DNA from: Candidatus Kerfeldbacteria bacterium
GTDB taxonomy: Bacteria; Patescibacteriota; Patescibacteriia; SBBC01; CAIJZX01
NCBI GenBank assembly: GCA_903825245.1
Contig: CAIJZX010000015.1
Coordinates: 28,564 to 92,563 of the forward strand
Reading direction: 5' to 3'
Length of the DNA stretch: 64,000 nt
Notes under the pieces: model-generated
Databases searched by the model: none
The model's input: only the letters and a program-made list of their open reading frames with translations
Told to the model about the DNA's origin: nothing
Position numbers and translations under genes: made by a program
Shown here: one piece after another, positions 10,071 through 58,730 of the stretch
Layout of the letters: each line of letters starts with the position of its first letter
Numbering within the stretch: position 1 is the first letter of the stretch

Positions 10071-11717
10071 ATGACCAACAAGGTAACGAGCGCCCTGCAG
10101 AAAGACGGTCTCCTGACTCGTCAGCAGGTGCAACAACTCCAGCAATTCAGCGGCGGCAACGTCATCGATTTTTTCCGTACTGAGAAAATTCCGTTAGAAC
10201 AATCGATTGACCAATACCTCCGCGAACGGCATTCATTGCCGGTGGTTTGTCTCGATCAAGTTGTACTCGATCCGGACGTGGTGAAAAAGTTGCCGCAGGC
10301 GTTGTGTCTCGAGCACCTGGTCGTACCGTTCCATAGTGAAGGCCAGACATTGTACGTTGCCATGGCTGAACCGGAAAATACGGACATTAAGCATTTTATT
10401 CAAACCTACACCGGCATGACAATTGTGCCGTATCTTTCCGATGTCCAAGGCATCCGGCAGGTGATTCGTACGACGTTTGATACTACCGCTGATGATGACC
10501 GTCGACAGATTGATGAACTCGTAACACGCGCCACGTCGCTAGGCACAGATCCGGAAGCGATGGCGAAAGAAGCGCCGATCATCCAACTCCTTGATCATTT
10601 CTTGGCACATGCCATGCGTCTCGGCGCAAGTGATTTACACTTAGAACCGACTGATGCGACGGCAATGATTCGCTTGCGTATTGACGGTTTATTGCACGAC
10701 ACTTTTACCTTGCCGTTGAGTTTACACGCCCCGCTCGTCGCCCGCATAAAAATTCTGGCTTCAATGCGCATCGATGAGCACTTACGTCCCCAAGACGCGC
10801 GATTTGTATTCACCCACACCGATCGTAGCATCGCCGTTCGTGTTTCCATTGTTCCGGCGTTACATGGACAAAAAGTTGTTTTACGTTTCTTAAGCACGGA
10901 TATTGAAAACTTTTCCGTCGAGCGTTTAGGTATGGCGTCGGCGGCACAAAATGCCGTGAAAAAAATGATTACCGCACCCCACGGATTGTTATTGGTGACC
11001 GGGCCGACCGGTTCGGGCAAAACGACGACGCTGTACAGTATGATGAATGAATTGCGTCAACGTAAAGTCAATATTTCCACGATCGAAGATCCGATTGAAT
11101 ACAAGATTCCCGGTGTGACCCAGGTGCAGGTGAATCCGCAGGTCGGATTAACATTTGCCACCGGTTTGCGTTCCTTGCTCCGCCAAGATCCGGACATTAT
11201 TCTCGTTGGAGAAATTCGTGATCGTGAAACAGCCGAGATTGCTATTCACGCCGCACTAACTGGGCACTTAGTTTTATCTTCATTGCATACAAATTCTGCC
11301 GCGGCCGCCGTCACCCGGCTTCTTGATATTGGTATTGAGCCGTACTTAATTGCCTCAACGGTCTGCGGTGTTATTGGTCAACGATTAGTACGTGAAATTT
11401 GCCCGAAGTGCAAACAGGTAATTCCGACAACCGCTTGGCCGGAACAATTGCAATCCGCTGAACCGGCACCGACGACCCACGCCGTCGGTCAAGGCTGTAC
11501 TACCTGTTTACAAACCGGCTATCGCGGACGAGCTGGACTCTTCGAAGTGATGCCAATGACCGAGCAGATTCAACAACTGGTCATGCAACGCGCGACGGCG
11601 ACCGCTATTGAAAACGCGGCTGTGGTCAACGGTATGCGCACGCTCCGTGATGATGCGCGCTTGAAAGTGCAACAAGGATTAACCACGCCGCAAGAAGTTA
11701 TTCGCGTTCTGCTATAA
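10071..11717 (+). CDS. pilB: type IV pilus assembly ATPase PilB (GspE family)
   Basis: Walker A GPTGSGKTTTLY, Asp/His boxes, and a C-terminal tetracysteine (CPKC...CTTC). Confidence 0.92.
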   Translation: MTNKVTSALQKDGLLTRQQVQQLQQFSGGNVIDFFRTEKIPLEQSIDQYLRERHSLPVVCLDQVVLDPDVVKKLPQALCLEHLVVPFHSEGQTLYVAMAEPENTDIKHFIQTYTGMTIVPYLSDVQGIRQVIRTTFDTTADDDRRQIDELVTRATSLGTDPEAMAKEAPIIQLLDHFLAHAMRLGASDLHLEPTDATAMIRLRIDGLLHDTFTLPLSLHAPLVARIKILASMRIDEHLRPQDARFVFTHTDRSIAVRVSIVPALHGQKVVLRFLSTDIENFSVERLGMASAAQNAVKKMITAPHGLLLVTGPTGSGKTTTLYSMMNELRQRKVNISTIEDPIEYKIPGVTQVQVNPQVGLTFATGLRSLLRQDPDIILVGEIRDRETAEIAIHAALTGHLVLSSLHTNSAAAAVTRLLDIGIEPYLIASTVCGVIGQRLVREICPKCKQVIPTTAWPEQLQSAEPAPTTHAVGQGCTTCLQTGYRGRAGLFEVMPMTEQIQQLVMQRATATAIENAAVVNGMRTLRDDARLKVQQGLTTPQEVIRVLL

Positions 11718-11721
11718 ATTT

Positions 11722-12933
11722 ATGACACACTACGACTATACCGCTCTCCAATTTGATAACACGATTCTTCGTGGCCAGGTAGCGGCCTGGACGAAACGCG
11801 GAGCAACTTCGGCCTTACGCAAGCAGCATTTGACTGTGGTGACCGTGCGTCCGACGCCAACGACATCAAAATGGCGAAAATATTTACCGACGCACGTCTC
11901 GAGTTTCGATCGCATTGTTTTTACTCGCAACCTGTTGACCATGTTGAAGGCGGGGATGACGATCAGCGAAGCCTTGGCCTCGACGCGCGAACAAATGAGC
12001 AATATCGGATTTCAGAAGATTATTAGTTCGATCGAGCAATCAATTCAGGCCGGGCAACCGATGTCAGCGGGATTGAAGCGCGCGCCAGGGGTGTTCAACG
12101 CCGAGTATGTGGCGATTATCACGATCGGTGAACGCAGCGGAAAACTGGTAGATGTCCTAGCGTATCTATCAAAAAAATTAGAAGATGAGCATCGTTTACT
12201 CCGACGCATTCGTCAGGCTTTAACCTATCCGGCGATCATCCTTGTCACCATGTTGATTATTGTCTCGATTATGGTGCTGTTCGTGATTCCACGCATCTCC
12301 ACGATCTACGTTGATGCCGGGGTGAAATTGCCGTTGATGACCCGCATCTTGTTGGCGATTAGCACATTCCTGTCGCACTACTTTCTGCCGATCTTCTTTG
12401 TTCTACTTGGCTTAGTTCTCATCTTCGACCTCGTTATGCAACGGTCGCCGAAAGTGCGAAAAATTATCCATCGCCAACTACTCAATATTCCGGTGTTCGG
12501 TCTGATGTTAAAGAAACTCAACATCGCGATGGTCAGTCGATCGCTATCGATGTTGCTCCAATCCGGTGTGCCGATCGACCGCTCGTTGCTCTTAGCGGCC
12601 GATACTGCGCAAAACGCATCGTATCGTGACGCTTTGCAGTGGGCTGAACCGCTCGTCTCGCGCGGCGTTCACCTAACTGACGTTTTTCGCGGTCGACAAG
12701 ATTTATTCTTACCGGTTTTCCAACGCATGGTTACGACCGGTGAAAAGTCGGGTAATCTCGACACAATGTTTGCCAATGTTGCTGGTTACTACGATGAAGA
12801 CTTGGAATACTGGGCGGCCAACATTTCTTCCACCATTGAACCAATTATGATTGTCAGCGTCGCGGTCGTGGTTGGATGTATCGCGGTGGCTATTCTTTTC
12901 CCACTATGGAACCTCGTCAACGTCATCAACTAA
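11722..12933 (+). CDS. pilC: type IV pilus platform protein PilC (GspF family)
   Basis: 403-aa polytopic protein with two GspF repeats, immediately after pilB. Confidence 0.9.
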   Translation: MTHYDYTALQFDNTILRGQVAAWTKRGATSALRKQHLTVVTVRPTPTTSKWRKYLPTHVSSFDRIVFTRNLLTMLKAGMTISEALASTREQMSNIGFQKIISSIEQSIQAGQPMSAGLKRAPGVFNAEYVAIITIGERSGKLVDVLAYLSKKLEDEHRLLRRIRQALTYPAIILVTMLIIVSIMVLFVIPRISTIYVDAGVKLPLMTRILLAISTFLSHYFLPIFFVLLGLVLIFDLVMQRSPKVRKIIHRQLLNIPVFGLMLKKLNIAMVSRSLSMLLQSGVPIDRSLLLAADTAQNASYRDALQWAEPLVSRGVHLTDVFRGRQDLFLPVFQRMVTTGEKSGNLDTMFANVAGYYDEDLEYWAANISSTIEPIMIVSVAVVVGCIAVAILFPLWNLVNVIN

Positions 12934-13355
12934 CGGTGTTACGGCCAGCCTTTACCATGATTGAGGTCTTGGTGGTTTTGGCGATTCTCGGCATTATTCT
13001 GGCTTTCGGTGCGCCAGGGTACGCACAGCAACAGCAACGCGCGACGATTACGAAAGAAACCGATCGGCTTGTTTCATTGCTCCGTGAAGCGCAATCACGA
13101 TCATTGAATGCCGAAGACGGCCTGGCCTGGCAATTAGTGTGCACTGGTTCGACGGTGACATTGAAAACCGTTGAAGATTCGTATGCGACAGCATATGACT
13201 TTCCGAAAGTGCAGTGCGCTTCGGGTACAGTGCAATTCCAAAAATTGACCGGTCTAGCTTCGGGAGCAAATGCACTAACACTACAAGTGCATGGGCAAGC
13301 AGTAAAACGTGTGATTATTTCCGCTACCGGCACCATGACTACTGAAACATTATGA
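12906..13355 (+). CDS. type IV pilin-like protein (prepilin N-terminal domain)
   Basis: Leader followed by AFTMIEVLVVLAILGII, a class III signal peptide with Glu+5. A replaces the canonical G at -1. Confidence 0.75.
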   Translation: MEPRQRHQLTVLRPAFTMIEVLVVLAILGIILAFGAPGYAQQQQRATITKETDRLVSLLREAQSRSLNAEDGLAWQLVCTGSTVTLKTVEDSYATAYDFPKVQCASGTVQFQKLTGLASGANALTLQVHGQAVKRVIISATGTMTTETL

Positions 13356-13819
13356 TTCGCCGCGGCAGTCTTATCATTGAAGTCCTCCTCAGCGCTGGTT
13401 TGATTGCTGTGTTCGCTTTATTTTTAAGCGGCTTGCTTGTTGTTACCAGCAAGACGAATCGCTTAGCCAAAGAAGAGTCGCAAGCCGCGGCGTACGCCCA
13501 GCAGAACATGGAACAGCTGGTAGCCATCAAAAATACGAAATGGAGCGATCTCAGCACTGGAACGTTTTATATTTCGAAATCAGGACCAACATCATACGGA
13601 TTAAATGCTACACCGACCGGCGATACTCTGGATGGACTGTACCATCGGTTGATCACTATCACCGAAGTCCGTCGTGACGCGTCACAAAATATTGTTACCA
13701 CGGGCGGAACGGTTAATGGAAAGTCTTTGCAAGCAAACGTAACCGTTTCGTGGTCTGATAATGGTAATCACCAAGTGATGTTAGTTAATTATTTTACGAA
13801 CTGGAAGGATTTACCGTAA
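13352..13819 (+). CDS. minor pilin / pseudopilin
   Basis: N-terminus MIRRGSLIIEVLLSAGLIAVF is prepilin-like. Confidence 0.65.
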   Translation: MIRRGSLIIEVLLSAGLIAVFALFLSGLLVVTSKTNRLAKEESQAAAYAQQNMEQLVAIKNTKWSDLSTGTFYISKSGPTSYGLNATPTGDTLDGLYHRLITITEVRRDASQNIVTTGGTVNGKSLQANVTVSWSDNGNHQVMLVNYFTNWKDLP

Positions 13820-13820
13820 T

Positions 13821-14375
13821 ATGAAACGTCCTGGATACACCCAGCACCACTTTTTCCAATCACTTCGACGTTTGTATTCGCAGCACCGCCAGCAAAAAGG
13901 TGGTGCTGGGTATACTCTTGTCGAACTCCTCGTCTATCTTGGACTCAGTAGTCTGGTGCTGTTACTGATGACCGGATTTCTGGCGCGCGTTATGGGCAAT
14001 AAAGCGATTGCTGCCACGCAAACGCAATTACAAGAGAACGAACGGACGGTCTTCGATGCGATGACCGTAGCGATACGTAACTCGTATGAAGTCACCGTCG
14101 AGAATAGCGGTACGAAAGTGATCGTTAAGTCGCATCCGGAAGATTCTGGCTTAACCACATATACCGTCTTTCAGGTGGATGCACACCAGCGGCTGAGTAT
14201 GGGTCAAAATGAGGATTTTATGCTCGTTGACCCCCAACCAATTACCGATGACGGTATTATCGTCAAGGCGTTTTCTGCCACGGTGATTTCTTCGTCACTT
14301 GAGGTGACACTGGTGATACAAAAGGGCACTCAAACGAACGCCTTTACTTCGACAATCGCTTTTCGCCAACAGTAA
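13821..14375 (+). CDS. minor pilin / pseudopilin
   Basis: GYTLVELLVYLGLSSLVLLL prepilin-type N-terminal helix follows a basic leader. Confidence 0.65.
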   Translation: MKRPGYTQHHFFQSLRRLYSQHRQQKGGAGYTLVELLVYLGLSSLVLLLMTGFLARVMGNKAIAATQTQLQENERTVFDAMTVAIRNSYEVTVENSGTKVIVKSHPEDSGLTTYTVFQVDAHQRLSMGQNEDFMLVDPQPITDDGIIVKAFSATVISSSLEVTLVIQKGTQTNAFTSTIAFRQQ

Positions 14376-14378
14376 TAT

Positions 14379-15452
14379 ATGCCTCAACGTCCCGGAGCAA
14401 TTACCCTCATCGCCACTTTTTTCACCGCCATGGTTGCGTTGATGCTGTTGTTGACCGTCAACATCCATGCGGTTGATGAAAAACAGCGGACGCACGATAA
14501 TACTATCTCCGAGCAGGCGTTTTATGCGGCGCAATCATGTACTGATGAAGCATATTTGCATCTTCGCACCGATGTGTCATTTCGCGACGTTGCTACGCTC
14601 AACATTGGCTCAGGAACGTGTACAGCACATATAACGCCATCAGGTCCTGACAGCGGCCAAATAGTTAGTACCGGTCGAAGCGGTAGTGCTATACGAACCA
14701 TCCAGTCCTCGTATTCGGGAGCTGGGGCGACGGTGGCTCAGAATAATACGCAGATTTATCACGTTATTGATCGCTCAGGCAGTATGGATGATCAAGTATG
14801 TACCGTTCCGACGTACACGTCACAATATGATTGTGAAGCCGTACATCATATGCAATGGGTAACGAAGGCTAGCGCGGCAAAAGACGCCGCCAAGTATTTC
14901 AATACCACAGTTCTTGTTCCTGGAAATACTCATGATTCAATTGGTTTAATTTCTTATGCTAGCGAGGCTACATGGGATAGTGCCTTGCAGACAGATGCAA
15001 GTGTGATTAACAATGATATTGATAACATGCCCAGTCCATTGAATAGCACTAATTTTGATGATGCTATTGCTCTAGCTGTTCAGCATTTACCGGTTACACC
15101 GACACCTGTCACTCGAGCTATGATTTTACTGACTGACGGACAACCCACAACCTATCATACCGGACGAAGTTGTGTAGTTAACGGTCTCACGATGAGCAAT
15201 GATGACTGTTCAAAGTACTGGGGTCAGCAAGAAGCTCAGGCTGCCAAGGATGCTGGCATTCTTGTCTTTACGATTGGTTTCGGTAATATCACAGAAATTG
15301 ATATTCCATACATGGAGTCAATTTCTAGTGTGATTAATGGGCACACGCTTTTCTTTGCCCCGACTTCAACTGGACTAAACGACGTGTATAAAAAAATCTC
15401 TGATATTCTCATTCAGTATAACCTTCAACAGGGTAGCTGGAACGAGCAGTAA
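14379..15452 (+). CDS. pilus-associated von Willebrand factor A (vWA) domain protein (PilY1/tip-adhesin-like)
   Basis: N-terminal pilin-like TM helix, MIDAS motif DRSGSMDD, and LLTDGQPT. Confidence 0.7.
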   Translation: MPQRPGAITLIATFFTAMVALMLLLTVNIHAVDEKQRTHDNTISEQAFYAAQSCTDEAYLHLRTDVSFRDVATLNIGSGTCTAHITPSGPDSGQIVSTGRSGSAIRTIQSSYSGAGATVAQNNTQIYHVIDRSGSMDDQVCTVPTYTSQYDCEAVHHMQWVTKASAAKDAAKYFNTTVLVPGNTHDSIGLISYASEATWDSALQTDASVINNDIDNMPSPLNSTNFDDAIALAVQHLPVTPTPVTRAMILLTDGQPTTYHTGRSCVVNGLTMSNDDCSKYWGQQEAQAAKDAGILVFTIGFGNITEIDIPYMESISSVINGHTLFFAPTSTGLNDVYKKISDILIQYNLQQGSWNEQ

Positions 15453-15462
15453 ATAAATATCA

Positions 15463-15499
15463 GCCCCCACACCAATATGTTGGTGTGGGGTTTTTTATT
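15463..15499 (+). terminator. rho-independent terminator of the pilus operon
   Basis: CCCCCACACCAA-TATG-TTGGTGTGGGG followed by TTTTTTATT. Confidence 0.85.
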
Positions 15500-15787
15500 G
15501 CCAAAAAAACAGCTTCGCGGTACTCTCTCAATGTCCTTTCCAGCCATCATCGTTGTTCTATACATTGTCCTTGGGCGGCTGAATCGCCGCGTCCCTTGGG
15601 ATGTGGCTCTGGCTGACCCAGCGGTCAACACACTGCTTCAGGACGCTCAAGTGCTCCTTCGCGAAGTACTGGAGTAGTTCGGCAGCAGACCTCGCGCCAT
15701 GTATGGCGCGGGGAATCAAGCCCGCTTACCTTCGTAAAGGACGCGATGGTGGCTACTAGGGAGGACATGAAAAGACGCAAAAAAGCG

Positions 15788-15863
15788 TTGGTCGGGGTAG
15801 CGGGACTCGAACCCACGGCCTCATGCACCCCATGCATGCGCGCTACCAACTGCGCCATACCCC
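15788..15863 (-). tRNA. tRNA-Pro (anticodon GGG)
   Basis: Manual cloverleaf fold: acceptor CGGGGTA/TACCCCG, D arm GCGC-AGTTGGTA-GCGC, anticodon stem CATGC/GCATG with loop ATGGGGT, T arm GTGGG-TTCGAGT-CCCGC. CCA is encoded. Confidence 0.8.
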
Positions 15864-16024
15864 GATGTAGGTCTATACTACGTCAGGTCAAGAAAAAATA
15901 CAAACACAAATATTTACCCGATCTTTTCGCTTCCGGCGGAGTTCAAAATGTCAGGAGTTTTCTGATGCAAGTTTTAACCTTTCCATTAAGAGGTACATAA
16001 TACGTAATAACTAATACGAATACT

Positions 16025-16789
16025 ATGTTTACACGGGATGGGCAACAAGAAGAGTATATAAAAGAAAATTATCTACAAGTTACCGATTCGCGCCTGGACG
16101 ACGATCACTGGGACTTGCTCTGTGACCATTGCAAAGTTGTACGCGGTTTTCAGGTTGTAAAACGTACATTTACAGATAGAGCAGGGCATTATAATGCACA
16201 AATTGATACCAAAGCTCCTGAAACAATATACTTCCATTGCCCAGTATGTCATTCATATAAACTTTGGATAATGTTCCGCCTCTATGACCGGGAATCGGAA
16301 TCTTGGCGATACTACAAGGTTACCGCAGTTCCAAATGATGGTTTAGAGGAGATTGCCGAGTTACCAGAAAATCCATCAACTTTGCGTGCGGCCTATAAAG
16401 AAGCGATGCGAGCGATGGACGCAAATGCGCATATGGCTGCCGCAGCTATGTTTAGAAGGGCGCTACAAGTAATAACGCGCGATATTTTGAAAGCAAAACC
16501 TGGTAACCTCGGTGTAGAGCTTCAAGAAGTTGTTGGTAAAACTTATAATGGTGGAGTTATAGATTCAACATTTTCCGAAAACGCTTATATCGTGAAAGAA
16601 GCAGGAAATCAAGGCGCTCATCCAGATAAAGATCCGGATTTACTGGATTTTGCTGCGGAGGATGCAACAGCCTTGCAGGAAATATTTATGGAGATTGTTG
16701 CCGATCTATTTGTAGTACCAGCAGCGAAGCAAAAAGCCAAGGATGACTTCAAGGCACGAAGAAAAATCGAAGTACCTGAAGAAAAGTAA
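16025..16789 (+). CDS. zinc-ribbon + DUF4145 (HEPN-like) domain protein
   Basis: Cys pairs CDHC...CPVC at the N-terminus. The C-terminal region (AYKEAMRAMDANAHMAAAAMFRRALQVI...KEAGNQGAHPD) matches the DUF4145 pattern. GC is about 41% against a window average near 50%. Confidence 0.6.
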   Translation: MFTRDGQQEEYIKENYLQVTDSRLDDDHWDLLCDHCKVVRGFQVVKRTFTDRAGHYNAQIDTKAPETIYFHCPVCHSYKLWIMFRLYDRESESWRYYKVTAVPNDGLEEIAELPENPSTLRAAYKEAMRAMDANAHMAAAAMFRRALQVITRDILKAKPGNLGVELQEVVGKTYNGGVIDSTFSENAYIVKEAGNQGAHPDKDPDLLDFAAEDATALQEIFMEIVADLFVVPAAKQKAKDDFKARRKIEVPEEK

Positions 16790-16841
16790 TAGGGTCGAAA
16801 TTCGCATAACGGGATTACATTTTGTGAAAAAGGAAGAAATA

Positions 16842-16870
16842 AGTATCACTCTTTACATACCTAGAGCTTC
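16842..16870 (+). promoter_or_regulatory. sigma70 promoter TTTACA-17-TATAAT upstream of padR
   Basis: Hexamers at 16842-16847 and 16865-16870 with a 17-nt spacer. Confidence 0.5.
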
Positions 16871-16900
16871 TATGTATAATGGTTGTAGGCATCAATTCCT

Positions 16901-17254
16901 ATGGAAATTAACAAGGATCTTATCGCCGCGTCCTCAACCCCAATCGTCTTAGCGACCCTCGCGAAGCGGGAGAGTTATGGCTACGCGATTTTGAAGCAGG
17001 TGCAGGATGCCTCGGGTCAGCACATCGAATGGACCGACGGCATGCTGTATCCGGTCTTGCATCGTCTCGAGCGGCTGGGCTACATCGACGGCACCTGGAA
17101 AGACGCGGACAGCGGACGGAAGCGGAAGTACTATCGGATCACGTCTCGGGGGCGAAAACAGTTGGCCGACGAGCTCAAACAATGGCGCGCGGTAGACGCG
17201 ACGATTCGCGGTATCCTACCGGCCATGACCATGCAACTTTCTCACCGCCTATGA
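16901..17254 (+). CDS. PadR family transcriptional regulator
   Basis: Winged-helix PadR motifs (YGYAILKQV...MLYPVLHRLERLGYI). Confidence 0.85.
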   Translation: MEINKDLIAASSTPIVLATLAKRESYGYAILKQVQDASGQHIEWTDGMLYPVLHRLERLGYIDGTWKDADSGRKRKYYRITSRGRKQLADELKQWRAVDATIRGILPAMTMQLSHRL

Positions 17255-18603
17255 CCACACCGCACATCGAACAGCAGATCGAGCAGTGGCGCGAATACTT
17301 TCTGCGGCGTAAAGCGGTGCAATCGCAAGATGTCGCTGAACTCGAAGATCACTTGCGAGAACAAATTACCGGATTGGAGAAGAATGGCTTGTCGTCCGAT
17401 GAGGCGTTTTTGGTAGCCATCAAGCGCCTTGGGGATCTCGACAGCATTTCACGCGAGTTTGCGCGAGAGTATTCGGAACGCTTGTGGAAACAGCTTGTGG
17501 TCGCGCCGTCGGATACCGAAGCAGGGGAATCGCGAACTGAGTGGATGATGGTGTTGGGATTGGCTGTGCTCGCCGCGCTGTTGATTAAAGCTCCAACCCT
17601 GTTTGGCTTACAAATTGATCGTGATTGGGGATTCTACGTTCGTAATGTAAGTTTTTCGGTTTTACCAATCTTGGCCGGATACTTTATCTGGAAGCGAAAG
17701 TTGAGTGGGAAGTTTGTTGGGTGGGTTGCGGCGGCCTTTGTGGTTGCGGCGATCGTGATGAATGTTTTTCCATTTCATCTCAATGGCTCAACGATCGGTT
17801 TATCGGCGTTGCACTTGCCGATTGTGTTGTGGTTTGTTGTTGGTGTGGCGTATGCCGGATCGCGATGGCGTGAGGTTACCGGACGGATGGATTTCATTCG
17901 CTACACCGGTGAGTTGTTTATCTACTACGCCTTAATTGCCCTCGGCGGCGGTGTGCTGTCCGGGTTCATGCTCATGATATTTGAATCTATTGGTGTGAAC
18001 ATCAGTCCGGTAATCGGGTTATGGGTTATACCATGCGGTGCGGCCGGCGCGGTGATTATTGCCTCGTGGCTTGTCGAGGCGAAGAAGAGCGTGATCGAAA
18101 ATATGGCACCCGTTCTGACAAGATTATTCACGCCGCTGTTCGCTTTAGTATTGCTCGTGTTCTTAACGACGATGGTCTGGACGGGGAATGGCGTTAATGT
18201 GGCGCGTGATGTCCTCATCGGTTTTGATTTGCTGCTGGTTGTCGTTCTCGGATTGTTTGTGTACTCGATGTCCGCACGATCACCGCAAGCGAAGCCGGGC
18301 ATGTCTGATATTTTGCAGATTATTCTGTTGGTTAGCGCGTTGCTGGCGGACGCGGTAGCGCTGTGGGCGATCGCTTCGCGCATTTCAGAACTTGGTTGGA
18401 CGCCGAATCGAGTGGCCGCCCTTGGCGAGAATATTATTCTGCTCGTTAATCTCGCTTGGTCGAGCGTATTGTACCTGAAGTTCTTCCGCAAGCAGGGGAC
18501 GTTCGCGGAGCTTGAAAAATGGCAAACGCAGTACATAGCCGTCTACGCTACTTGGGCGATGATCGTCGTCGCACTATTCCCACTACTATTCGGATTTCGT
18601 TGA
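17251..18603 (+). CDS. PadR-associated membrane protein (DUF1700-like N-terminal domain + polytopic domain)
   Basis: ATGA overlap with the padR stop. The N-terminus HIEQQIEQWREYF...DEAFLVAIKRLGDL resembles the permease-prefix/DUF1700 family. About 10 TM helices are predicted. Confidence 0.7.
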   Translation: MTTPHIEQQIEQWREYFLRRKAVQSQDVAELEDHLREQITGLEKNGLSSDEAFLVAIKRLGDLDSISREFAREYSERLWKQLVVAPSDTEAGESRTEWMMVLGLAVLAALLIKAPTLFGLQIDRDWGFYVRNVSFSVLPILAGYFIWKRKLSGKFVGWVAAAFVVAAIVMNVFPFHLNGSTIGLSALHLPIVLWFVVGVAYAGSRWREVTGRMDFIRYTGELFIYYALIALGGGVLSGFMLMIFESIGVNISPVIGLWVIPCGAAGAVIIASWLVEAKKSVIENMAPVLTRLFTPLFALVLLVFLTTMVWTGNGVNVARDVLIGFDLLLVVVLGLFVYSMSARSPQAKPGMSDILQIILLVSALLADAVALWAIASRISELGWTPNRVAALGENIILLVNLAWSSVLYLKFFRKQGTFAELEKWQTQYIAVYATWAMIVVALFPLLFGFR

Positions 18604-18627: not shown

Positions 18628-18981
18628 ATGTCTCAGCTTACGATTGCCCACAAAACTGCCATCCGCCAAGCGCTAACAACTGCTAGTGCCGTTGTACCGT
18701 TTTTCGAAAAAGCATATCCGAAAGATAAGCGACCACGACGAGCGATCGAAGCGGGGAGAGCATGGTTGCGCGGAACTATGAGCGTTGGCGATGTTCGAAA
18801 AGCGGCGTTTGCCGCACATGCGGCGGCAAGAAAAGCGAAGAGTCCAGCGGCGCGAGCTGCGGCTCGCGCCGCTGGACAAGCCGCGTCAACCGTTCACGTC
18901 CTAGGTCATGCTCAGCATGCTCTTGATTACGTCGCAAAAGCGCGTAAATTTGTGCGTCAAAAATCAACACCGAAGAACTAA
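18628..18981 (+). CDS. hypothetical Ala-rich all-alpha protein (immunity-protein-like?)
   Basis: 117-aa ORF with a repeated AARAA/AHAAAR pattern. Confidence 0.5.
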   Translation: MSQLTIAHKTAIRQALTTASAVVPFFEKAYPKDKRPRRAIEAGRAWLRGTMSVGDVRKAAFAAHAAARKAKSPAARAAARAAGQAASTVHVLGHAQHALDYVAKARKFVRQKSTPKN

Positions 18982-19094
18982 AACCTTCAGTCCATCATCG
19001 GCTAGCCTTGTTCGAGATAAAGGCATAGGTGGTTTTAGGACTCACAATATATGTGATATGCTAATATGATATTGCGCTATTAACCATTAACCAT

Positions 19095-19433
19095 ATGGAC
19101 AATACACAGCCCCAACCGACAAGACTGACACCAGCTCCCTGGTTTAATCGTGCTTGGATCGGTACATTGATAGTATTCTTTGCTTCGTTTCTCGTTTATC
19201 TCCCGACGTTCAATTCCTATTCTTCCATCAAACGTTTCGGTATTATTGTCTTGGCTCTTGTGCCATCGCTCCTCGTGAACGGTTATCACGGTATCACGCA
19301 TAAGTATCTTCAAGGCAAAATTGTCATTCGAGGAACGATGGCGGTAGTGCTGGGCGTCTTCTATTGTCTGGCGGCGGTCGCCGTTCTTTGGATTGGGTTA
19401 CGTATGATCACGAGTTCTACAACGAGTCTGTAG
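19095..19433 (+). CDS. small membrane protein
   Basis: 112 aa with three hydrophobic helices. Confidence 0.5.
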   Translation: MDNTQPQPTRLTPAPWFNRAWIGTLIVFFASFLVYLPTFNSYSSIKRFGIIVLALVPSLLVNGYHGITHKYLQGKIVIRGTMAVVLGVFYCLAAVAVLWIGLRMITSSTTSL

Positions 19434-21502: not shown

Positions 21503-21552
21503 TAAAAATATAACAAAACACCACTCATCTGAGCGGTGTCGTTGTGTAGTTG

Positions 21553-21702
21553 TTACTTCAAGGGATTTCTTCCCTGAATCACGCGAATCAGGAACATAAT
21601 AATCGCCAGAATTAACAGGATGTGGATGAAGTTTCCTAAGAAATGAAACGTAAATCCTAGTAACCAGAGAACAAGAAGGACGATGCCAATAATAAGAAAC
21701 AT
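21553..21702 (-). CDS. lmo0937-family small membrane protein (49 aa), absent from the ORF track
   Basis: Hand translation gives MFLIIGIVLLVLWLLGFTFHFLGNFIHILLILAIIMFLIRVIQGRNPLK, the pattern of the lmo0937/DUF5670-type family. Confidence 0.55.
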   Translation of the reverse strand: MFLIIGIVLLVLWLLGFTFHFLGNFIHILLILAIIMFLIRVIQGRNPLK

Positions 21703-21877
21703 AGATTAGAGGGTTTTATTCTTTAATGACTTTTTCTTTCTCGCCGCAGCAATTCTTTCGGCAGCATACACGACACTCGCGATAATAATTGTGCCGGCAA
21801 GCTTTCGTAGTGAATGGTGTTTACCCTTAGGTAAAGGCGACCGAGGGATTTCAGAAATGGTGGTCATGCCTATAGGA

Positions 21878-22468: not shown

Positions 22469-22475
22469 TTTAGAA

Positions 22476-23022
22476 TCATTTTGGCCCTCCTTCTGTTTTC
22501 TTTATGAGAGGAGGATAGAGGATTTTCATTTTTACCAGTCCGCGATGAACTTGAACGGCAACAGTGTTTTTTGATTGGCCGGTGATGAGGGACATTTCTT
22601 TCAGTGATAAATCCTGAATGTACCGCATGCGCATAATTTTTTGATACTTTTCTGGTAAACGATTCATGAGAAGTTGTGCCTGGCGGCCATCAATGATATT
22701 AAATAGGCGACTAGTCGGATCAACGCTCGGTTCAAAGCCCTGTTCTGTTAAGATGTCGAGTGACACCGTTTTTTGTTTACGATACTCGTCAACAATGAGA
22801 TGATTGAGCACATGGAAGAGAAAAGCGCGCATCACATCAATCTTGCCACCGCGCAGTTAGGTAGCGCCAGGTTTTCATGAAGGTGTCCTGGACAAGGTCG
22901 TTACTGAGTGTTTGATCGGGTAATTTAAACGAGGCGTGGGTGTTCAACGCTTTGGCGAAGTCATGGTGGGCTGCGCTTAAAACGCCTTTGAGGCGTATTT
23001 CCTGTTTTGAGTTCATAATCAC
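22476..23022 (-). pseudogene. ECF-type sigma-70 family sigma factor interrupted by a frameshift (two ORFs 22837-23022 and 22476-22835)
   Basis: Sigma region 2 (DLVQDTFMKTWRYL) is in one frame. Its continuation (GGKIDVMRAFLFHVLNHLIVDEYRK) and region 4 (LPEKYQKIMRMRYIQDLSLKEMSLITGQSKNTV) are in the +1 frame. Hand translation around 22835-22870 shows a TGA in one frame and a TAA in the other. Confidence 0.65.
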
Positions 23023-23257
23023 GTATGATTATAGCCGTTCCAACCTTGTTTCTATGACAAGTCGATGACGGTAATTTTGAACCTGCCCAGTTTGATCAAT
23101 AGATTGTGGCTATTGAGCACCAGGGCAGCCAGATTGCTATGACAAAACTATTACAACATAATGGCAGAAACGTGCCTCAATGGGGCAATTGAGGTGTATC
23201 ACGGACGTGGTGATAACGCAAGTGAAATATATTGCATTCTGGTTCGGCATACAAGAC

Positions 23258-30120: not shown

Positions 30121-33100
30121 ATGCGTCGTTCGCACATGCTTCGACAACGCTCCCTCGCCCTGCTGAGTATCACCTTGATATTCGGAGGGTTAGTGGCGTT
30201 CGTTCACGCTCCTCATGTGCATGCTGCGACGGCGACGACCTATAGCCTCGAGTCGATAGGCGGACAGGTCGGACTTGGGAATGCGGACCTGAAGCAGGTG
30301 ATTATTAATATCATCAAGTGGGCGCTCGGTTTATTAGCGTTGGTGGCCGTGTCCTACATGATCTACGGCGGGTATGTGTGGATGACGGCGGCCGGTAATG
30401 AAGCTCGAGTTGAAAAAGCGAAACAAATTATTCTCCAGGCCGCAATCGGCTTAGTGATTGTGCTTCTTTCCTGGGCGATCGTCTTGTTTGTGACGAAGTC
30501 GTTATTGAATGTGACCACCAATACAGATGCTGGAACGACCTGCACTCCCGGAGTGGACTGCGCTATTCCTCCTGTTACCGGTGATGAATTTGATATCACC
30601 GCTATCAATACCTGTGCTGTGCCGCCAAAGACCTATGAGAATGTACCGCGTTCCAGTTCGGTGTCGATCACCTTTAATACTGATGTCCAAACGACCCCGA
30701 ACTATGTCCAAACGGCCGTCGGCACTGGTGCCGATGATTTACAGATTGTAAAAATATGTACTGATCTAGCCGCTGGTTGCGTCGTCGGTTCTCCTATCGC
30801 ACCAAATCCAGCGCCAATCGACAACCAAGTATATACGTCCGGACCAAAACCGACTGCGACTGCGGCTGATCTACCGCAGAAAGCAGAGTGGGTATTGAAA
30901 GATAATTCGTTAACGTTCTATCACCTTACGTTGGCGCAGTGCAAGGACGGCACGAAAATCGGTCAAACGTGTGCCGCAGATACGGATTGCACGGACCCGG
31001 ACGCCACAACGCACGTCTGTCAAAAAACGGACCGGTATTTTGATGCCAGTTCGACGTACCGAGTCACAATTCCTAAAGATACCAACACCAAGGCACTCAA
31101 AGACGTTCGTGGTCGGGTATTGCAAAGTTGTGGTGTGCCGGGTCTCGGCGGCGCGATCGATCATTGTACCAGTGATGCTAACAATTTTTATTACACGTTC
31201 ACGACTGGAACCGATACATCAGGTCCGGCGTTCGATGTTGTCAATACCGCGCCGTCGTCGGCATACATCGAAGACACAACGTTAACAGTTGATCGGAATG
31301 TTCCGCGATCAGAAATTCTGTCCATTAATTTTTCGGGCGGCGTCGATCCAGCGTCGGTAACAACGGATAATTTCCGTGTCTATAAAATTACTAACACCCC
31401 AACAAATCTCAACGATGGAACGTGTACGGGTCCTGGACCAGCTTTTGCCCATATCAACTGTCCAGAAACAACAGTTGATCCCAATGATTTCAATATCCGC
31501 GTCAGCGCTTCAGGGCAAGGCATCGTTCTGCAGTACAAAGACCCAACAAAATGGTTTGACGCCTATACCTGGTATCGCGTGGACGTTAAAGATATTCTGA
31601 ACCTTTGCGGAACGAGCGCGAAGCGATCGTGGGTGTTTGAAACGAATAACGTCACGCCCGGTGTCGAGTATGTCTATCCAAATACCGGCTTTGGTTTTTC
31701 CTGTCCGAGTACCGATGTCTACGCACAATTTACTACGTCGATGATGAATATTGCGGCGAGTACGAGTTCGTGTTTTACCGGCAACGCAACGTCGTTCAAT
31801 ACGCAATTAGAAATGTATAAATATACGGCGCCCGTGGGCATGATTACACCCCGGTTGAATTGGAAATTTGATCAACCGCCAGTGGGAGCAACGGATCCAA
31901 ATAATTACTGTAAACACTTGTGGTATGATCCGACGACCGATAGTCTGCCAATCGATTCGGAGCTTGGGATTAGTATTACTACTGATCGGGCAAAAGATGC
32001 CGCTGGTACCAAGCTAACCTATGGTGACACAGTTCCCGGTCCAATGCCGACGAGTGATCCGGTTGGGAGCTGGCACTTTATGGTGAAAAAACCTGGTGAA
32101 TGCGCAAATGCGCCAGTGGTACAATCAGTTTCCCCAGGGGTAGACGCCAATGGTGCTTGTATTTCGGTGCTAGGAAAATACTTTACCGATCCGGCGAAAC
32201 CGGCGCCCGGGACGACCTATCCGCGTGCGATTGATACGTTGGATTTATCATCAAAAGTTCAAGGTCTTTCAACGATTAAGTCGTGGACAGACAACACGAT
32301 TGTTAATCGATTAGATGCGGGGACGGGTGCTGGAGCGCTTACACCAAATGCAGGAAGTGATCCAGCGACCTATTACAATTATAAAGTTGGCGTAAAGTAT
32401 GATGCGCCGATTGGTCTTTTAGAGAGCCAGGTAACTCCTAGCAGTCATTTCCAGCTGAAGGCAGGCGCAGCTTCAAACCGCCCGTGTTTAACTTCAGTCA
32501 TTCCAGATCAAGGTTACGCGGGTGTAACGAAATTTGAAGCAAATGGTGAAAATTTTGGTACGGCGACCGGATCCATCGTTACCAATAACGCCACCGATTG
32601 GGTGCAAAGCCCGGCGACCCCGTGGATTCCCACCAAGGTAGAAAATATCCTGGTCAAGGCTAGTGCTGTTCCAATGACAACGGCGGTGCAAATAAAAAAT
32701 GCCGACGGCATCAGCAATGCAGTAAATTTCGAGGTGTTGCCGCCGGCAACTCCGGGAACGAATCCGGCGCCGGAAGTAATTACCGATACGACCTGTAACT
32801 TGGCAGGCGGGACGATACCCAGTCCGAACCCGGTAAACGGCGACACTATAGCTTGTAAAAATTCAGAAATTACCGTTCGTTTTACCACCAATCTAGATTC
32901 GAGTACGGTCAATTCTGGCACTGTGCAGGTGGTATCGGCGGGTCCAGTAATTCCGCTTTCTATAACCACGGTCGGCAATCTGGTGACCATAAAGCCAACG
33001 ATCATTACAGACATGTTTACCTCGGGTCAAACATACTCCGTAACCCTAACGACGGGTATTAAATCAACAGCGGGCGTGGCGATGACGGCGCCGTACCCAT

Positions 33101-36100
33101 GGTCGTTTCGGATTGACACGAGTGGCGACGTCTGTCACGTAACGAACGTGGAGTTGAATCCGAATGGAACGCAGCGCACCAATAATCCAAACTACTACCC
33201 GCCGATCAGTATTTCGGCGCTACCTACGGATACATCGTGTCATACACTAACTGCGTCGGGGAGTACGACCTGGACAAATTCCAAGCCAGCCGTCGGGACG
33301 ATTAATACGACGACGTCTGCTCAATCAAATATTCTCACGGCGCCGGCTGCAGGCGCGGCGTATAGTTCGACGACAGTTACCGCCAAAATACAATCAATCA
33401 CCAGCGCCCCAGGATTTACCCTGGAAGTGAGTCCGACCGGTTGCGCCTCGACGTCGGATTGTTTGAAGAATCGATTCGGCGCTTCTTGTAATGGTTCAAT
33501 GTGTCAGGGTGGACAATGTACGCCGGTGGTGAATAGCATAGTGCCGAATGTTGGGCCGGTCGGTGAATGGACAACGCTTAATGGTTGCTGGTTCGGAGCG
33601 TACGTGTTGGGTGCCAGCAAGGTGAATTTCTCTCCGTCAACTACCGACCCGTCTTCACCAGGTACCGAGGCTGATACTCCGGACGCTCTTATTTGTGGCA
33701 ACACCTGGACGAATGAACAGATTATCCGCATTGTTCCGCCGACCGCCGCGACAGGACCCATTCAGGTGATTCGCGGTGCGGATGGCTTCAAATCAACCGT
33801 TCTCGCTACCGGCGTACCGATCGGTTGGGGGGCTACCTTGGCTACGCAATCGACCGATGTGCCGACAGGTCACACAGGTTTTTCGGGAATGGCGGATGCG
33901 CCTAGCGGTGGACCTCAAGCATGGCTCGCTCAAGAGTTGCCGGGAACAAATACCGTTGGTGCGAAATATCATGTGATCGGTTGGGTTAAGGGGACTATTG
34001 TAGGAGGGTCAACAGCTGGTCTTATCACACGGTGTTCGGCAGATGTTGTTGGTGAAACCTGTGGGTACGATCTCTTGGGGGCTGCTCCAGGACTTCTCCT
34101 ATCAACGACCGGGTGGAAAAAGATAGATTTCTACATTACCAATAGCAATCCGGCGGATAATGATAAAAATATTTCGATTGACTGTTTTGCTAATCCAGGA
34201 AGTAAAATCTACTGCGACGATATCACCGTTACTAATGCGGATACTGGCGCGGTAGTGCCGGTCAATAACCCAAGTTTTGAAACGACAACGCCAATTTTTA
34301 CCGTCAATACTGCCGCCGTTGACCCGGGTATTTGTAAAATTGATCCTGTCTTCGGTCAGCAAGGCTCAGGCTTCAAGGTTTCCGGTAGCGCCTCACTCAT
34401 ATCAGCGGCTGGTACGCCGAGAAAATTCAGCTTTACAAATGGAGCAACCGTCGATGATGATGAAACTACCGCATTGCCGTGGACGACAACGACCGTGAAC
34501 GGTAAGGTACCGGGCACAGCAACACTCGGGTCAAATGAGGTGACGGCTACCATCAACGGAAAAACAAGTAATCCGCTACAGTACTCGGTGGATCCAGCAA
34601 CTTGTGCGCAAACCTGTAATACCGATGCGGAGTGCAATGTTGTGGGCAGCGATATTAATGGTTGTGGAACTCCCCAGGCGGCACTCGGTGGTTTAGGTTG
34701 CTGCGCGACACGGCCGAAAATTTCCTCTACGAATCCGGCGCAAGGGGCAACAAATATTTGTCTCAACCCGGCACCAAAAATTACGTTTGACCAACCGCTT
34801 GATCCATCAACTATTACCGCCGGACCATCAGGTACGGTGCAATACAAAGATGGATCACGGAGCGTTAACGGTACGGTGAGTTACCGAACAACAGCTACGA
34901 ACGAAGGGGAAATAACCTATTATCCTGGACTCTTATCAGCAAATAGTGCTCAGTCGATGTCATTTATATCATATGTTCCCGATCCTGGGACGACGTTGAT
35001 AGTTAAAAATCCAAGTTTTGAAACCCTGACGTCGGGGGGAGCACTTGACCCATGGAATGGATTCTCATCGCGAATTACACAGGCTGACCCGGCGCCGGGA
35101 CAACCGGTAGGATCGCATTCGGGGTTGGCTGATAATTCTGCTAGTTCTAGTGGTCAGGTGGCTTTGGCCCAAAATATTGCCAATACGAACGTCGTTGGAA
35201 CGACCTATCGCGTGACCGGCTGGGTAAAGGTGGGACATGTGAGCGGATCTGAAGTTGCCGGGTTAATTACACGATGTAGTGACGGTTCCGCCTGCGGATT
35301 TGATCTTTTTGGTCAGGCGCCGGGACTTTGGGGCGCGAGTAATAGTTTATCGGATTGGACTAAACTCGACTTCATGGTAACAAAAACGAGTGGTTTACCA
35401 AGCGTTAACCTTAACATTGATTGTTTCGCTAATGCGAAAAATAAAATCTGGTGTGACGATATCACGGTCACCAAAATGATCCCCAGTTTGATACCGAATG
35501 CTATCCGCGGTGCAAATGGCGTAGCGGCGGATGTAACTGGTTCACCGTTGACGTTTACCACGAACGCTACCATGTGTACGCCCGATAAGGTTAAAATTAC
35601 CCCCGTCAGCAAAAAGTTTGTTTCATCAGCTGATGCAACGTTTTCTGCGAAAATATATACTTCCGACGACGTTGAATTTTCCCCACTGCCCGGGCTGACA
35701 TTGGAATGGACATGGCTGAGTAGTACGCCGACGGTTGCCTCGGTTACTAAAATAGTGGCAACGCCGAATACCGCCACTGTTCATCCGGTTGTGAATGGCG
35801 CCACGACGATTACCGCGACGACAAAAGTAAGTGTAGCGCCTGGCAGTGTAGCAGCTGGCGCTTTGGATGCATCAATAAATGGACGCGAGATAAGTGGCCA
35901 ATCAGATGTTCAAGTAAAATTCTGTGCGAGTCCGTGGTCGTTTAGCGATACAGATTCAAACTGTGACACTGGTGGAACCTGCGAAGCTTTTAATTTCTCG
36001 ACGGATTACTGCGGTGACACTAGCGGAGCACCACTGCCGTCATTTTCCTACGAAGGCACTCTCCCCGGAATCGGTTCGATTGAAGGGGCGAACCTGGTTG

Positions 36101-46512: not shown

Positions 46513-47052
46513 ATGGAACTACTTATATCGATATTCATAGGGATCATACGATGGATCTCAAACGGACTATTGGTTTCCCTCCTCGGTATAGGTGTATATG
46601 TTCTTTTTAAAAAAAGAACCTTAAACGATCTTGCAGTAGACAAGCTTTTTCATTGGTCAGTAAAAATTTTCCTGGTGTACAGCATTATCGTGTCATTAGA
46701 TTCCGCATCGTTTTTTGTAGCCATGAATGCTTTTGGTGGTAAGGCCTCCTCTACGAGAACACTATTTGTTGCATTACTACTGTTTCTGTTTAGTATCCTA
46801 CCCGCGGTTATGATTTTTCTAGAACGAAACAGGAATGTATCCCGAGTTCGACGATGGGCTTGGTTTGCTTTAGTGCTAGAAGTGGCTGGGTATGTATTTT
46901 CGATATTTCAATCGGGATTTTTTTTCAATGGAGTATTAAGCGAACTGGTAACCATTGCCGCAATCATGCCGCCGGTGGTACTTTTACTTCTGGTTCGAAA
47001 AAAAATTCAGAACAGCGCCCCAGTAGTAACAAAAGTTGCAAGCGCCTTATAG
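46513..47052 (+). CDS. hypothetical polytopic membrane protein
   Basis: 179 aa with 5 predicted TM helices. It is preceded by the motif CTAAAGTGCTATACT. Confidence 0.5.
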   Translation: MELLISIFIGIIRWISNGLLVSLLGIGVYVLFKKRTLNDLAVDKLFHWSVKIFLVYSIIVSLDSASFFVAMNAFGGKASSTRTLFVALLLFLFSILPAVMIFLERNRNVSRVRRWAWFALVLEVAGYVFSIFQSGFFFNGVLSELVTIAAIMPPVVLLLLVRKKIQNSAPVVTKVASAL

Positions 47053-48877: not shown

Positions 48878-49351
48878 ATGTTAAATATTTCTGTAAATCG
48901 TCGGCTCCTCAGTATTACTGGTATTGGCGGTGCGATTGCGTTAACTATTTGTGGTGGTGGCATACAATTGCTGCCTATACCTTGGTTTTCGAATATTGTT
49001 TTTTCACCTTGGGGTATGTGGTTGGCAATACTTCTCGGATTAATGAGTTTTCTTGGAACACCAATTCTCCTGACACTACTGGTTTGGCGATGGGAATCTT
49101 TTTCGAAAGGATGGATGGGAGTGGTCATGCGCTGGCTACTTGGTTGTATAGCAATTTTGTTGGGATGGTTACTCACTGAGGCGGCGGGAACACTTGGTCT
49201 ATGGCGTGACTTGCCTTCTTTTATTAAGGACATGCTTTCTACTTCAGGTACATACTACGTTATAAGCGGCGGATCAGCACTTATCGGTTTTCTCGATTGG
49301 TTTTTCTTTACTCGACACTGGGGAAAGAAGGCGTTGACGACGCCGAAGTAG
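48878..49351 (+). CDS. hypothetical membrane protein
   Basis: 157 aa with four TM helices. Confidence 0.4.
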   Translation: MLNISVNRRLLSITGIGGAIALTICGGGIQLLPIPWFSNIVFSPWGMWLAILLGLMSFLGTPILLTLLVWRWESFSKGWMGVVMRWLLGCIAILLGWLLTEAAGTLGLWRDLPSFIKDMLSTSGTYYVISGGSALIGFLDWFFFTRHWGKKALTTPK

Positions 49352-58053: not shown

Positions 58054-58707
58054 ATGTCGAATATTCGCCTAATTATCATAATTGTTATAGCAGTTGTAGG
58101 CAGCTCAGCTGCGACAGGTTTTGTTATCCATAACCAGACGAAAGCAAACGCCAACACCCAACAAACTCAGAACAATAACAGTGACACCCCGGTCATTCGT
58201 AATGTTTCTGAAAACACAAACACTTCTTTTGTAAACACGAATGTGTCACTATCGACCAATACAAACGTCGCACCGGTGGTCAATACAGTGGTGTCAGCAC
58301 AGCCGGTTGCTCCGAAACCAAAACCTAAACCAGTGCCCGTAGTCAACACCACCCCTGCCGTTGATCCAGCGATAAAAATTGAGTTGTGCAAGACAGAGGG
58401 AAACGATGCAGTAGAAAAAAAGAAAAATGACTTTGCTACGGAATTTTTAAAAGAGGTCTGTGATGGTAGTGTAGTTGGGGGTAGTCATGGACTCTGCGAA
58501 ACCGCGGACGAAGTAATGGCGCAGTTTTCGAATCCACAAGATCCGCAGTATTGGGCTGATCCAGTTACTCGGCAAAATGCAGTCGACTCTTACCTGGCAA
58601 GCCAAGCAGATCGAAGATCAAATTGGCTTTCTGGCATGATGACTGGCATGCAGCCAGTTTATAGTAGTGCATACAATCCTGCATATGAAGCGTGTTTAAA
58701 AAAATAA
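58054..58707 (+). CDS. membrane-anchored Asn/Thr/Val-rich protein with C-terminal Cys-containing domain
   Basis: TM helix then low-complexity NT-rich and PKPKPKP segments. GC is below the window average. Confidence 0.5.
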   Translation: MSNIRLIIIIVIAVVGSSAATGFVIHNQTKANANTQQTQNNNSDTPVIRNVSENTNTSFVNTNVSLSTNTNVAPVVNTVVSAQPVAPKPKPKPVPVVNTTPAVDPAIKIELCKTEGNDAVEKKKNDFATEFLKEVCDGSVVGGSHGLCETADEVMAQFSNPQDPQYWADPVTRQNAVDSYLASQADRRSNWLSGMMTGMQPVYSSAYNPAYEACLKK

Positions 58708-58730
58708 TACAAAAATACACATTGACATCG

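Follow-up and report, generated by a model that had tools for sequence, protein, structure and literature searches.

PD-T7-4 is a single-gene antiphage system which was discovered through functional selection in E. coli (Vassallo et al. 2022, PMC9519451) and was renamed RAZR, for ring-activated zinc-finger RNase, in 2026 (Zhang et al. 2026, Nature, PMC13017515). The protein has an N-terminal Cys4 zinc finger, a conserved linker and a C-terminal DUF4145 domain, which is a HEPN RNase; R146 and H154 are both essential for defence, and the change R146A abolishes function (PMC13017515). Twenty-four copies of RAZR are arranged around the ~170-angstrom rings of phage portal proteins or of Gp77, and the activated protein cleaves single-stranded RNA (ssRNA) non-specifically, with a block of translation and abortive infection as the outcome; cryo-electron microscopy (cryo-EM) structures are available (PDB 9Y9C and 9Y6U) (PMC13017515). 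The zinc finger is the most variable region of RAZR and sets phage specificity, and the protein works without an antitoxin (PMC13017515). It protects E. coli from phages T3, T7, SECphi18 and SECphi27 (PMC9519451; PMC13017515). This report concerns a gene of similar architecture, here termed the RAZR-like gene, at positions 16025–16789 (+ strand) of a 64,000-nucleotide (nt) stretch of DNA from a Candidatus Kerfeldbacteria bacterium (contig CAIJZX010000015.1, positions 28,564–92,563). The entire stretch is termed the window, and positions given without a contig name refer to it.

The RAZR-like gene encodes a protein of 254 amino acids (aa) and is the sole open reading frame (ORF) between a tRNA-Pro gene and a gene for a PadR regulator. 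Pfam shows a DUF4145 match (PF13643) at residues 125–217 (E = 8.4e-9; 35.8 bits against a cut-off of 23.1 bits). The DUF4145/HEPN helical domain, delimited by Pfam, a domain model and Foldseek, encompasses residues 118–232 (nt positions 16376–16720, + strand). It is preceded by a zinc-finger domain at residues 28–100 (16106–16324, + strand), with Cys4 ligands C33, C36, C72 and C75 and two hypervariable loops (residues 45–65 and 85–95), and by a conserved linker at residues 101–117 (16325–16375, + strand). A predicted active-site motif, K191-E-A-G-N-Q-G-A-H199 (16595–16621, + strand), aligns to R146-x7-H154 of RAZR. An earlier sequence-only reading of this DNA had described a single gene in this segment whose product has an N-terminal 4-Cys zinc ribbon and a C-terminal DUF4145 (HEPN-related) domain, and all three features are borne out, the hidden Markov model (HMM) search that it proposed for DUF4145 giving the above-cut-off match. 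Its general statement on DUF4145 fusions also agrees with the literature, in which DUF4145 HEPN domains occur as fusions with subunits of type I restriction systems, with helicases and with further defence proteins (Anantharaman et al. 2013, PMC3710099). Its description of stand-alone zinc-ribbon-DUF4145 proteins as uncharacterised is outdated, since PD-T7-4/RAZR shares the architecture and both its cryo-EM structure and its mechanism are published.

Homologues of the window protein with the same N-terminus and length number 302. An exhaustive HMMER scan yielded 32 representatives at E <= 1e-30, which constitute the clade of the window protein, and 408 at E <= 1e-3, a wider set of 200–260-aa zinc-ribbon-DUF4145 proteins with an "R..GN..AH" motif. 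The exact sequence of the window protein was found on one contig only. That the ORF might be a fragment of a restriction-enzyme subunit was considered and rejected, as the family is full-length, conserved in size and has a zinc finger of its own.

Conservation was determined from an alignment of 38 family members. The two Cys4 knuckles, C33-x2-C36 and C72-x2-C75, are invariant in all 38. Position 191 is a lysine in 36 members and an arginine in the other two, and E192, G194, N195, Q196 and H199 are invariant in the clade of the window protein. The entropy is 2.4 and 3.0 bits in the two zinc-finger loops, 0.89 in the linker and 0.72 in the HEPN domain. Correspondingly, the mean majority fraction is 0.74 in the linker and 0.82 in the HEPN domain versus 0.42 and 0.26 in the loops, and the RAZR alignment is patterned alike.

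The window protein matches a single defence family in the PADLOC library, namely PD-T7-4 (E = 4.8e-8, residues 32–202 on profile positions 15–157 of 211). It also matches the PHROGs family phrog_1305 (E = 1.4e-24, residues 20–241 on profile positions 6–218 of 226), and the same family is matched over nearly the whole profile by P0288, a 95%-identical homologue of RAZR (E = 5.4e-27). The RAZR chain of the cryo-EM structure (PDB 9y9c_OA) was reached via intermediate homologues and its numbering verified (A68-G69-N70, Q140, R146 and H154), after which the RAZR family was collected. An hhalign comparison of the two family alignments gives 89.5% probability and E = 2e-6 over 112 columns, which begin at the second CxxC, include the linker and end at the catalytic histidine. 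In this alignment the second CxxC of the window family falls on C47/C50 of RAZR, and the CxxC columns are near-invariant across both families. A direct BLASTP comparison of the window protein with P0288 displays 28% identity over 103 aa (E = 8e-5). Ten residues (P103, P117, Y124, A127, R129, A139, R144, G194, N195 and H199) are invariant in both families. "KEAGNQGAH" of the window protein aligns with "RIVGNQAVH" of RAZR, such that H199 corresponds to H154 and K191 is placed at the R146 position. On these alignments the window protein is very probably a RAZR homologue with the same architecture.

Further zinc-ribbon-DUF4145 proteins were seen in Enterobacteriaceae. One is encoded in a prophage on the E. 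coli FDAARGOS_1277 chromosome (contig L027, 3674–4357), between lysis genes and terminase and near an anti-CBASS Acb1 gene, and another on an Enterobacter kobei plasmid (contig L026, 2998–3708). Both were considered as RAZR itself and rejected; at 43–60 bits on the PD-T7-4 model they are members of the wider family. Judged by these sequences, the wider zinc-ribbon-DUF4145 family comprises several clades within Enterobacteriaceae alone.

The AlphaFold2 model of the full-length window protein has a predicted local distance difference test (pLDDT) value of 81 and displays an N-terminal helix, a beta-rich zinc-finger domain (strands within 28–98) and a helical C-terminal domain. Residues 197–205, the loop with H199, have a pLDDT below 50. 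A model of the HEPN half alone is of higher confidence (pLDDT 88.6, predicted template modelling score 0.82). When this half was compared with the PDB by Foldseek, the top matches were all HEPN proteins, the best being 1ufb (template modelling (TM) scores 0.59/0.70, root-mean-square deviation 2.6 angstroms); others were 2hsb, 1wol, 1o3u, 2q00, the HEPN toxin of 7ae8/7ae9, AbiA, AbiV and Csm6. The full-length model gave only insignificant, mixed matches in the PDB, and matched two predicted viral proteins (E = 4.6e-9 and 1.1e-5).

The RAZR-like gene lies between conserved flanks. The closest syntenic comparator, a related Patescibacteria contig (L034; PilB 53% aa identity), displays the same backbone in the same order: pilus operon, conserved RNA-like element, tRNA-Pro(GGG) on the minus strand, PadR and membrane protein. 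The aa identity is 90% for PadR, 72% for the membrane protein and 35%–46% for the pilins. Nucleotide homology to L034 covers window positions 15782–15903 (95% identity) and 15931–15947, stops there, and resumes at 16850 with the PadR promoter (80%). Because L034 has the same flanks with unrelated genes in the slot, positions 15948–16849 are regarded as a variable cassette of 902 bp, which consists of the RAZR-like gene and its own upstream region. A weak sigma-70-like promoter match is present in the latter (15974–16001, + strand; TTAACC-16-CATAAT, 9/12 positions, 24 nt before the start codon), based on consensus match alone. The L034 slot holds 1239 bp of unrelated sequence with a 248-aa ORF (GC content 0.43 versus ~0.52 for the L034 locus; no Pfam or PADLOC match) and a 96-aa winged-helix protein. 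In a second relative (L029; PilB ~60% identity), the tRNA-Pro is identical at 74 of 76 positions and is on the + strand, and the DUF4145 gene is absent downstream of the orthologous pilus operon. The comparison at the same tRNA in related genomes, which the sequence-only reading had proposed as a check, thus shows absence of the gene in both relatives.

The tRNA-Pro gene (anticodon GGG; 15789–15864, minus strand; found by ARAGORN, Rfam tRNA 63.7 bits) has its 3′ end (15789) toward the pilus operon and its 5′ end toward the cassette, and the RAZR-like gene is transcribed divergently from it. With this orientation of the tRNA, it is the 5′ (promoter) side that the gene adjoins, and the location at a tRNA 3′ end that had been proposed is incorrect. 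The gene had also been placed right after the pilus-operon terminator and the tRNA; the adjacency to the tRNA-Pro is correct, but ~290 bp separate terminator and tRNA. A search for att-type direct repeats, either of the tRNA or of the borders of the slot, gave chance matches only. Pfam scanning of the ORFs at window positions ~6.2–27.5 kb, excluding 21,503–21,877 and 22,469–23,179, revealed no integrase or recombinase. A tRNA-targeting integrative island was therefore rejected, given the 5′-side position, the lack of repeats and the lack of an integrase among the scanned ORFs.

The phylogenetic distribution also bears on the origin of the gene. The window protein shows a uniform ~55%–63% identity to homologues from Adlerbacteria, Buchananbacteria, Acidobacteriota and Syntrophobacteraceae; PilB identity, by contrast, drops with taxonomic distance. 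The closest named PilB relatives ("Patescibacteria group bacterium" and "Candidatus Kerfeldbacteria") are ~50% identical and place the source genome in the Patescibacteria. A PilB search of genome contigs gave matches that are only ~40% identical, owing to idiosyncratic peptide patterns. Metagenome contigs searched with the membrane protein yielded one irrelevant match of 27%. In seven homologue contexts and the window there is no conserved neighbour gene, and several homologues are found near resolvases or serine recombinases, IS66, a ParE toxin-antitoxin pair, or a methylase-Mrr restriction enzyme. These observations support the RAZR-like gene being a mobile single-gene accessory module in a variable slot. 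Horizontal acquisition is its most likely origin, though not through an integrase acting at the 3′ end of a tRNA gene. The sequence-only reading had put forward a small defence or abortive-infection module gained by horizontal transfer, and this idea fits both the retention of the tRNA-Pro and PadR flanks in L034 with unrelated genes between them and the scattering of the family across phyla.

One homologue context stands out. On contig L020 (2886–8774), and also on L021, the homologue P0019 directly follows a small resolvase gene; the segment starts at a tRNA-Glu(TTC) and includes a 515-aa serine recombinase. This segment looks like an integrated mobile element that carries a RAZR-like gene.

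The base composition of the islet is in line with the proposed enrichment in AT, which is real but moderate. The GC content of positions 15865–16900 is 0.405 against 0.489 for the window (z = -3.4), in the bottom 0.4% of windows of equal length. The RAZR-like gene has a GC content of 0.425 and a GC content at third codon positions of 0.333, versus gene means of 0.487 and 0.499; it ranks fourth-lowest in GC among 61 genes tallied in the window, and its codon usage deviates from the pooled usage by z = 3.2 (rank 7 of 59). The three genes with lower GC are at 58692–59186, 46513–47052 and 1702–2214 (0.358, 0.400 and 0.405, respectively). The gene at 46513–47052 also shows a strong codon-usage deviation (z = 5.3). 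A gene at 48878–49351 has a GC content of 0.443, not below that of the RAZR-like gene, and a codon-usage deviation of z = 4.4. All four are candidates for additional genes of foreign origin or rapid evolution.

Computed here were the domain architecture of the protein, its homology to RAZR and its pattern of conservation, together with the variability of the slot and the unusual base composition; from these we infer an RNase activity, a defence role, the nature of the trigger and activation through oligomers. By analogy with RAZR, the Cys4 zinc finger with its two hypervariable loops would recognize a protein assembly made by the phage. Recognition would drive or reshape oligomers, in which paired HEPN domains would form a composite RNase site, K191...N195...H199. 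Non-specific cleavage of ssRNA would then shut down translation and abort the infection. The gene would act alone, without a partner gene; a single-gene mode of action is proposed because no neighbour is conserved in the window and the seven contexts and because PadR has its own conserved promoter. That the RAZR-like gene encodes a single-gene antiphage RNase acting by abortive infection is, on balance, the explanation we consider probable. A large phage ring, for instance a portal, is proposed more tentatively as its trigger, and is considered less likely than not.

Several findings weigh against a mobile defence RNase of the RAZR type. When the PDB was searched by sequence, 9y9c was matched by neither the window protein nor the profile of its family, and it is not among the listed top 50 Foldseek PDB matches of either the full-length or the HEPN-half model. 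The Foldseek E-values against the PDB are not significant for the HEPN half or the full-length protein. Several clade members are missed by the PADLOC PD-T7-4 model, and lysine is present in 36 of the 38 members where RAZR has its essential R146. Composition alone is weak evidence of foreign origin, because several other window genes are equally or more GC-poor. The Adlerbacteria homologue is located among housekeeping genes and is stable across many contigs. Finally, the flanking genes gave no PADLOC match (four tested in the window and five in L034). Because the sequence similarity to RAZR is this remote, with no PDB sequence match and members missed by the PADLOC model, the alignments place the window protein in a distinct clade of the zinc-ribbon-DUF4145 superfamily, with a larger sensor domain, and not in RAZR proper.

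The main uncertainty concerns K191, because R146A abolishes the function of RAZR. A HEPN fold may have been kept without RAZR-type RNase activity, the lysine marking changed or lost chemistry, and the protein would then be a nucleic-acid-binding regulator, a sensor or a decoy. The near-fixation of lysine at the essential position is in accordance with this, as are the low confidence of the H199 loop, the PHROGs label of phrog_1305 ("DNA binding protein") and the fact that ~20% of DUF4145 members are without a full Rx4-6H motif (Anantharaman et al. 2013, PMC3710099). The label, however, is an annotation and no test, and bona fide RAZR is in the same PHROG. Lysine and arginine alternate at position 191, which indicates that a basic residue is being kept, and the strict retention of E192, G194, N195, Q196 and H199 is hard to explain without a functional site. 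Together with the invariance of R144 in both families, these features favour an active site that is still functional, with a basic residue at position 191. Loss of the RNase activity is accordingly seen as an improbable outcome, though the least improbable of the alternatives.

The RAZR-like gene could also be passive cargo, i.e. a decaying remnant of a mobile element or prophage that is retained by chance and is of no current benefit to the host. Variable slot and atypical composition would be expected of such a remnant; in addition, matches of the family include a phage protein family and predicted viral structures, and the exact sequence is on one contig only. A search of viral contigs with the family alignment gave no match. 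The ORF, however, is intact and full-length with every family-invariant residue in place, no other mobile-element genes flank it, and the HEPN domain displays strong purifying conservation. Chance retention is thus quite unlikely, and more so than a loss of RNase activity.

HEPN domains paired with MNT are classic toxins of toxin-antitoxin systems, and one homologue of the window protein adjoins an RHH/ParE pair. The product could accordingly be the toxin of a toxin-antitoxin or addiction module with an unrecognised antitoxin. No MNT antitoxin gene is adjacent in the window or in any of the seven homologue contexts, however, and no other partner is conserved across these contexts; the downstream PadR gene is part of the backbone and is served by a conserved promoter of its own, and RAZR itself needs no antitoxin. 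There is little to recommend the toxin explanation on these grounds.

A native, vertically inherited housekeeping gene with a low GC content due to amino-acid content or expression level would be consistent with other window genes being equally or more AT-rich and with the surroundings of the Adlerbacteria homologue, but it is the poorest of the explanations and is given almost no weight, as the gene is absent from the L034 slot despite 80%–95% identical flanks and absent from L029, and as its identity to homologues of other phyla is about the same as to those of the candidate phyla radiation (CPR) while PilB identity falls with distance. All four alternatives are less well supported than a RAZR-like RNase.

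A further proposal joins two parts. The K-x7-H clade with its enlarged zinc finger may be a functionally distinct branch of the zinc-finger-HEPN defence proteins, one that might sense another class of phage assembly or have altered chemistry, and the slot that lies between PadR and the promoter side of tRNA-Pro may serve related CPR genomes as a hotspot for the exchange of single-gene cassettes without a recombinase. Taken jointly, the two parts make a speculative proposal that we think will probably not hold as a whole. If the branch is indeed distinct, RAZR-type immunity would be described in Patescibacteria for the first time.

The remainder of the locus is briefly described. The window has a GC content of 48.9% and nearly every gene is on the + strand. 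Upstream of the tRNA, a type IV pilus-like operon (10071–15452; identified by Pfam) encodes PilB, PilC, three pilin-like proteins and a VWA-domain protein, and is closed by an intrinsic terminator (15465–15490, + strand; an 11-bp stem with seven G-C pairs, followed by a T-run). Downstream, the conserved right flank starts with the PadR promoter region (16850–16900, + strand), in which TTTACA-17-TATAAT is found at 16852–16880 (11/12 matches). The backbone genes for the PadR regulator (16901–17254, + strand) and for a membrane protein with a permease-prefix domain (~17251–18603, + strand) follow, both identified by Pfam and NCBIfam.

Between the PadR operon and a MacB-type ABC transporter there are two small ORFs. 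The first (18628–18981) encodes an Imm5-like putative polymorphic-toxin immunity protein (Pfam PF21805, E = 1.2e-33; a weak match to phrog_38757), with no recognisable toxin gene alongside; the second (19095–19433) is a low-GC, membrane-like ORF of 112 aa without a family match. This stretch (18628–19433) may be a second small accessory region. Elsewhere in the window, positions 30121–37068 encode a giant surface protein of 2315 aa, of a type often found in episymbiotic CPR bacteria, which combines a T4SS-pilin-like segment at the N-terminus with Big_5 Ig-like domains.

The ~290 bp between terminator and tRNA-Pro are GC-rich and carry a candidate structured non-coding RNA of ~205 nt (15546–15754, + strand), which is part of the conserved backbone and outside the defence cassette. 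The element is conserved with 70%–77% nt identity in the related Patescibacteria contigs L034 (16175–16402), L029 (9737–9917) and L030 (7140–7320); in L029 and L030 it is located upstream of pilB and not downstream of the operon. RNAalifold predicts a long closing stem and three inner hairpins with 65 pairs in total, and compensatory changes across three lineages are seen in 18 of these. The minimum free energy is -91 kcal/mol (z = -4.1 on the + strand; z = -3.4 on the minus strand). A search of Rfam gave no match for the element even at E <= 10, and it contains no ORF. A small protein-coding gene at 15500–15788 was considered and rejected, as the conserved frame is interrupted by a stop codon and the covariation speaks for an RNA. 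The element is a candidate for a new non-coding RNA family. In L034, a called gene of 108 aa without a Pfam match (16130–16456) overlaps the element and is probably a spurious ORF call over the non-coding RNA.

Two observations concern the history of the backbone. The tRNA-Pro(GGG) gene follows the orthologous pilus operon in three genomes, on the minus strand in the window and in L034 (17236–17311) and on the + strand in L029 (16557–16632), which suggests that the surroundings of the tRNA were locally inverted or rearranged in this lineage. In addition, divergence between the window (16850–18603) and L034 (18617–20399) is very uneven, PadR, the tRNA flank and the membrane protein being closer and PilB and the pilins more distant. 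This reflects either a recent exchange of the tRNA-PadR segment between lineages or unusually fast-evolving pilus genes.

To our knowledge, RAZR has so far been studied only in Enterobacteriaceae, the phages of Patescibacteria are almost unknown, and the virus-host biology of CPR bacteria is poorly known. As the architecture already has a characterised prototype in RAZR, the window gene represents a divergent clade of a known defence type. Such a clade across Patescibacteria, Acidobacteriota and other phyla would widen the RAZR family. Its different sensor domain, and the lysine at the position of an essential arginine, offer a natural experiment on the catalytic and sensor features that such a system needs. 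A concrete candidate defence gene and a variable locus are thereby marked in CPR bacteria. For annotation purposes, a "DUF4145 domain-containing protein" with an N-terminal CxxC...CxxC should henceforth be read as a RAZR-like candidate.

In comparison with known systems, the window protein has its Pfam domain in common with the DUF4145 fusion proteins, as well as a general association with conflict systems. It differs in that its domain is neither fused to nor in an operon with a restriction-modification, McrBC or TerD component, the zinc ribbon being its only partner domain. With the HEPN toxins of HEPN-MNT systems (7AE8, 7BXO) and the minimal HEPN proteins (1UFB, 2HSB, 1WOL, 1O3U) it shares the same helical fold, and these are its best structural matches (TM 0.5–0.7). 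The motif spacing is x7 in the window protein versus Rx4-6H in these proteins, and the window protein has in addition a zinc-finger sensor domain and no MNT antitoxin neighbour.

The comparison with RAZR is the closest. The two proteins display ~28% identity over the HEPN core and are in separate clades, and their hosts are Patescibacteria and Enterobacteriaceae, respectively. The window protein is longer (254 aa versus ~209 aa), with an extra N-terminal helix (residues 5–15), a different basic C-terminal tail and a longer, more elaborate zinc finger with 35 residues between the CxxC knuckles, and it has K191 in place of R146. Despite these differences, both are encoded by a single gene and run from a Cys4 zinc ribbon at the N-terminus through a conserved linker to a DUF4145/HEPN domain at the C-terminus, both match phrog_1305 and PADLOC PD-T7-4, and both carry a basic-x7-His motif that contains GNQ. 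In both, the zinc finger is the most variable region, and homologues of both are tied to mobile elements.

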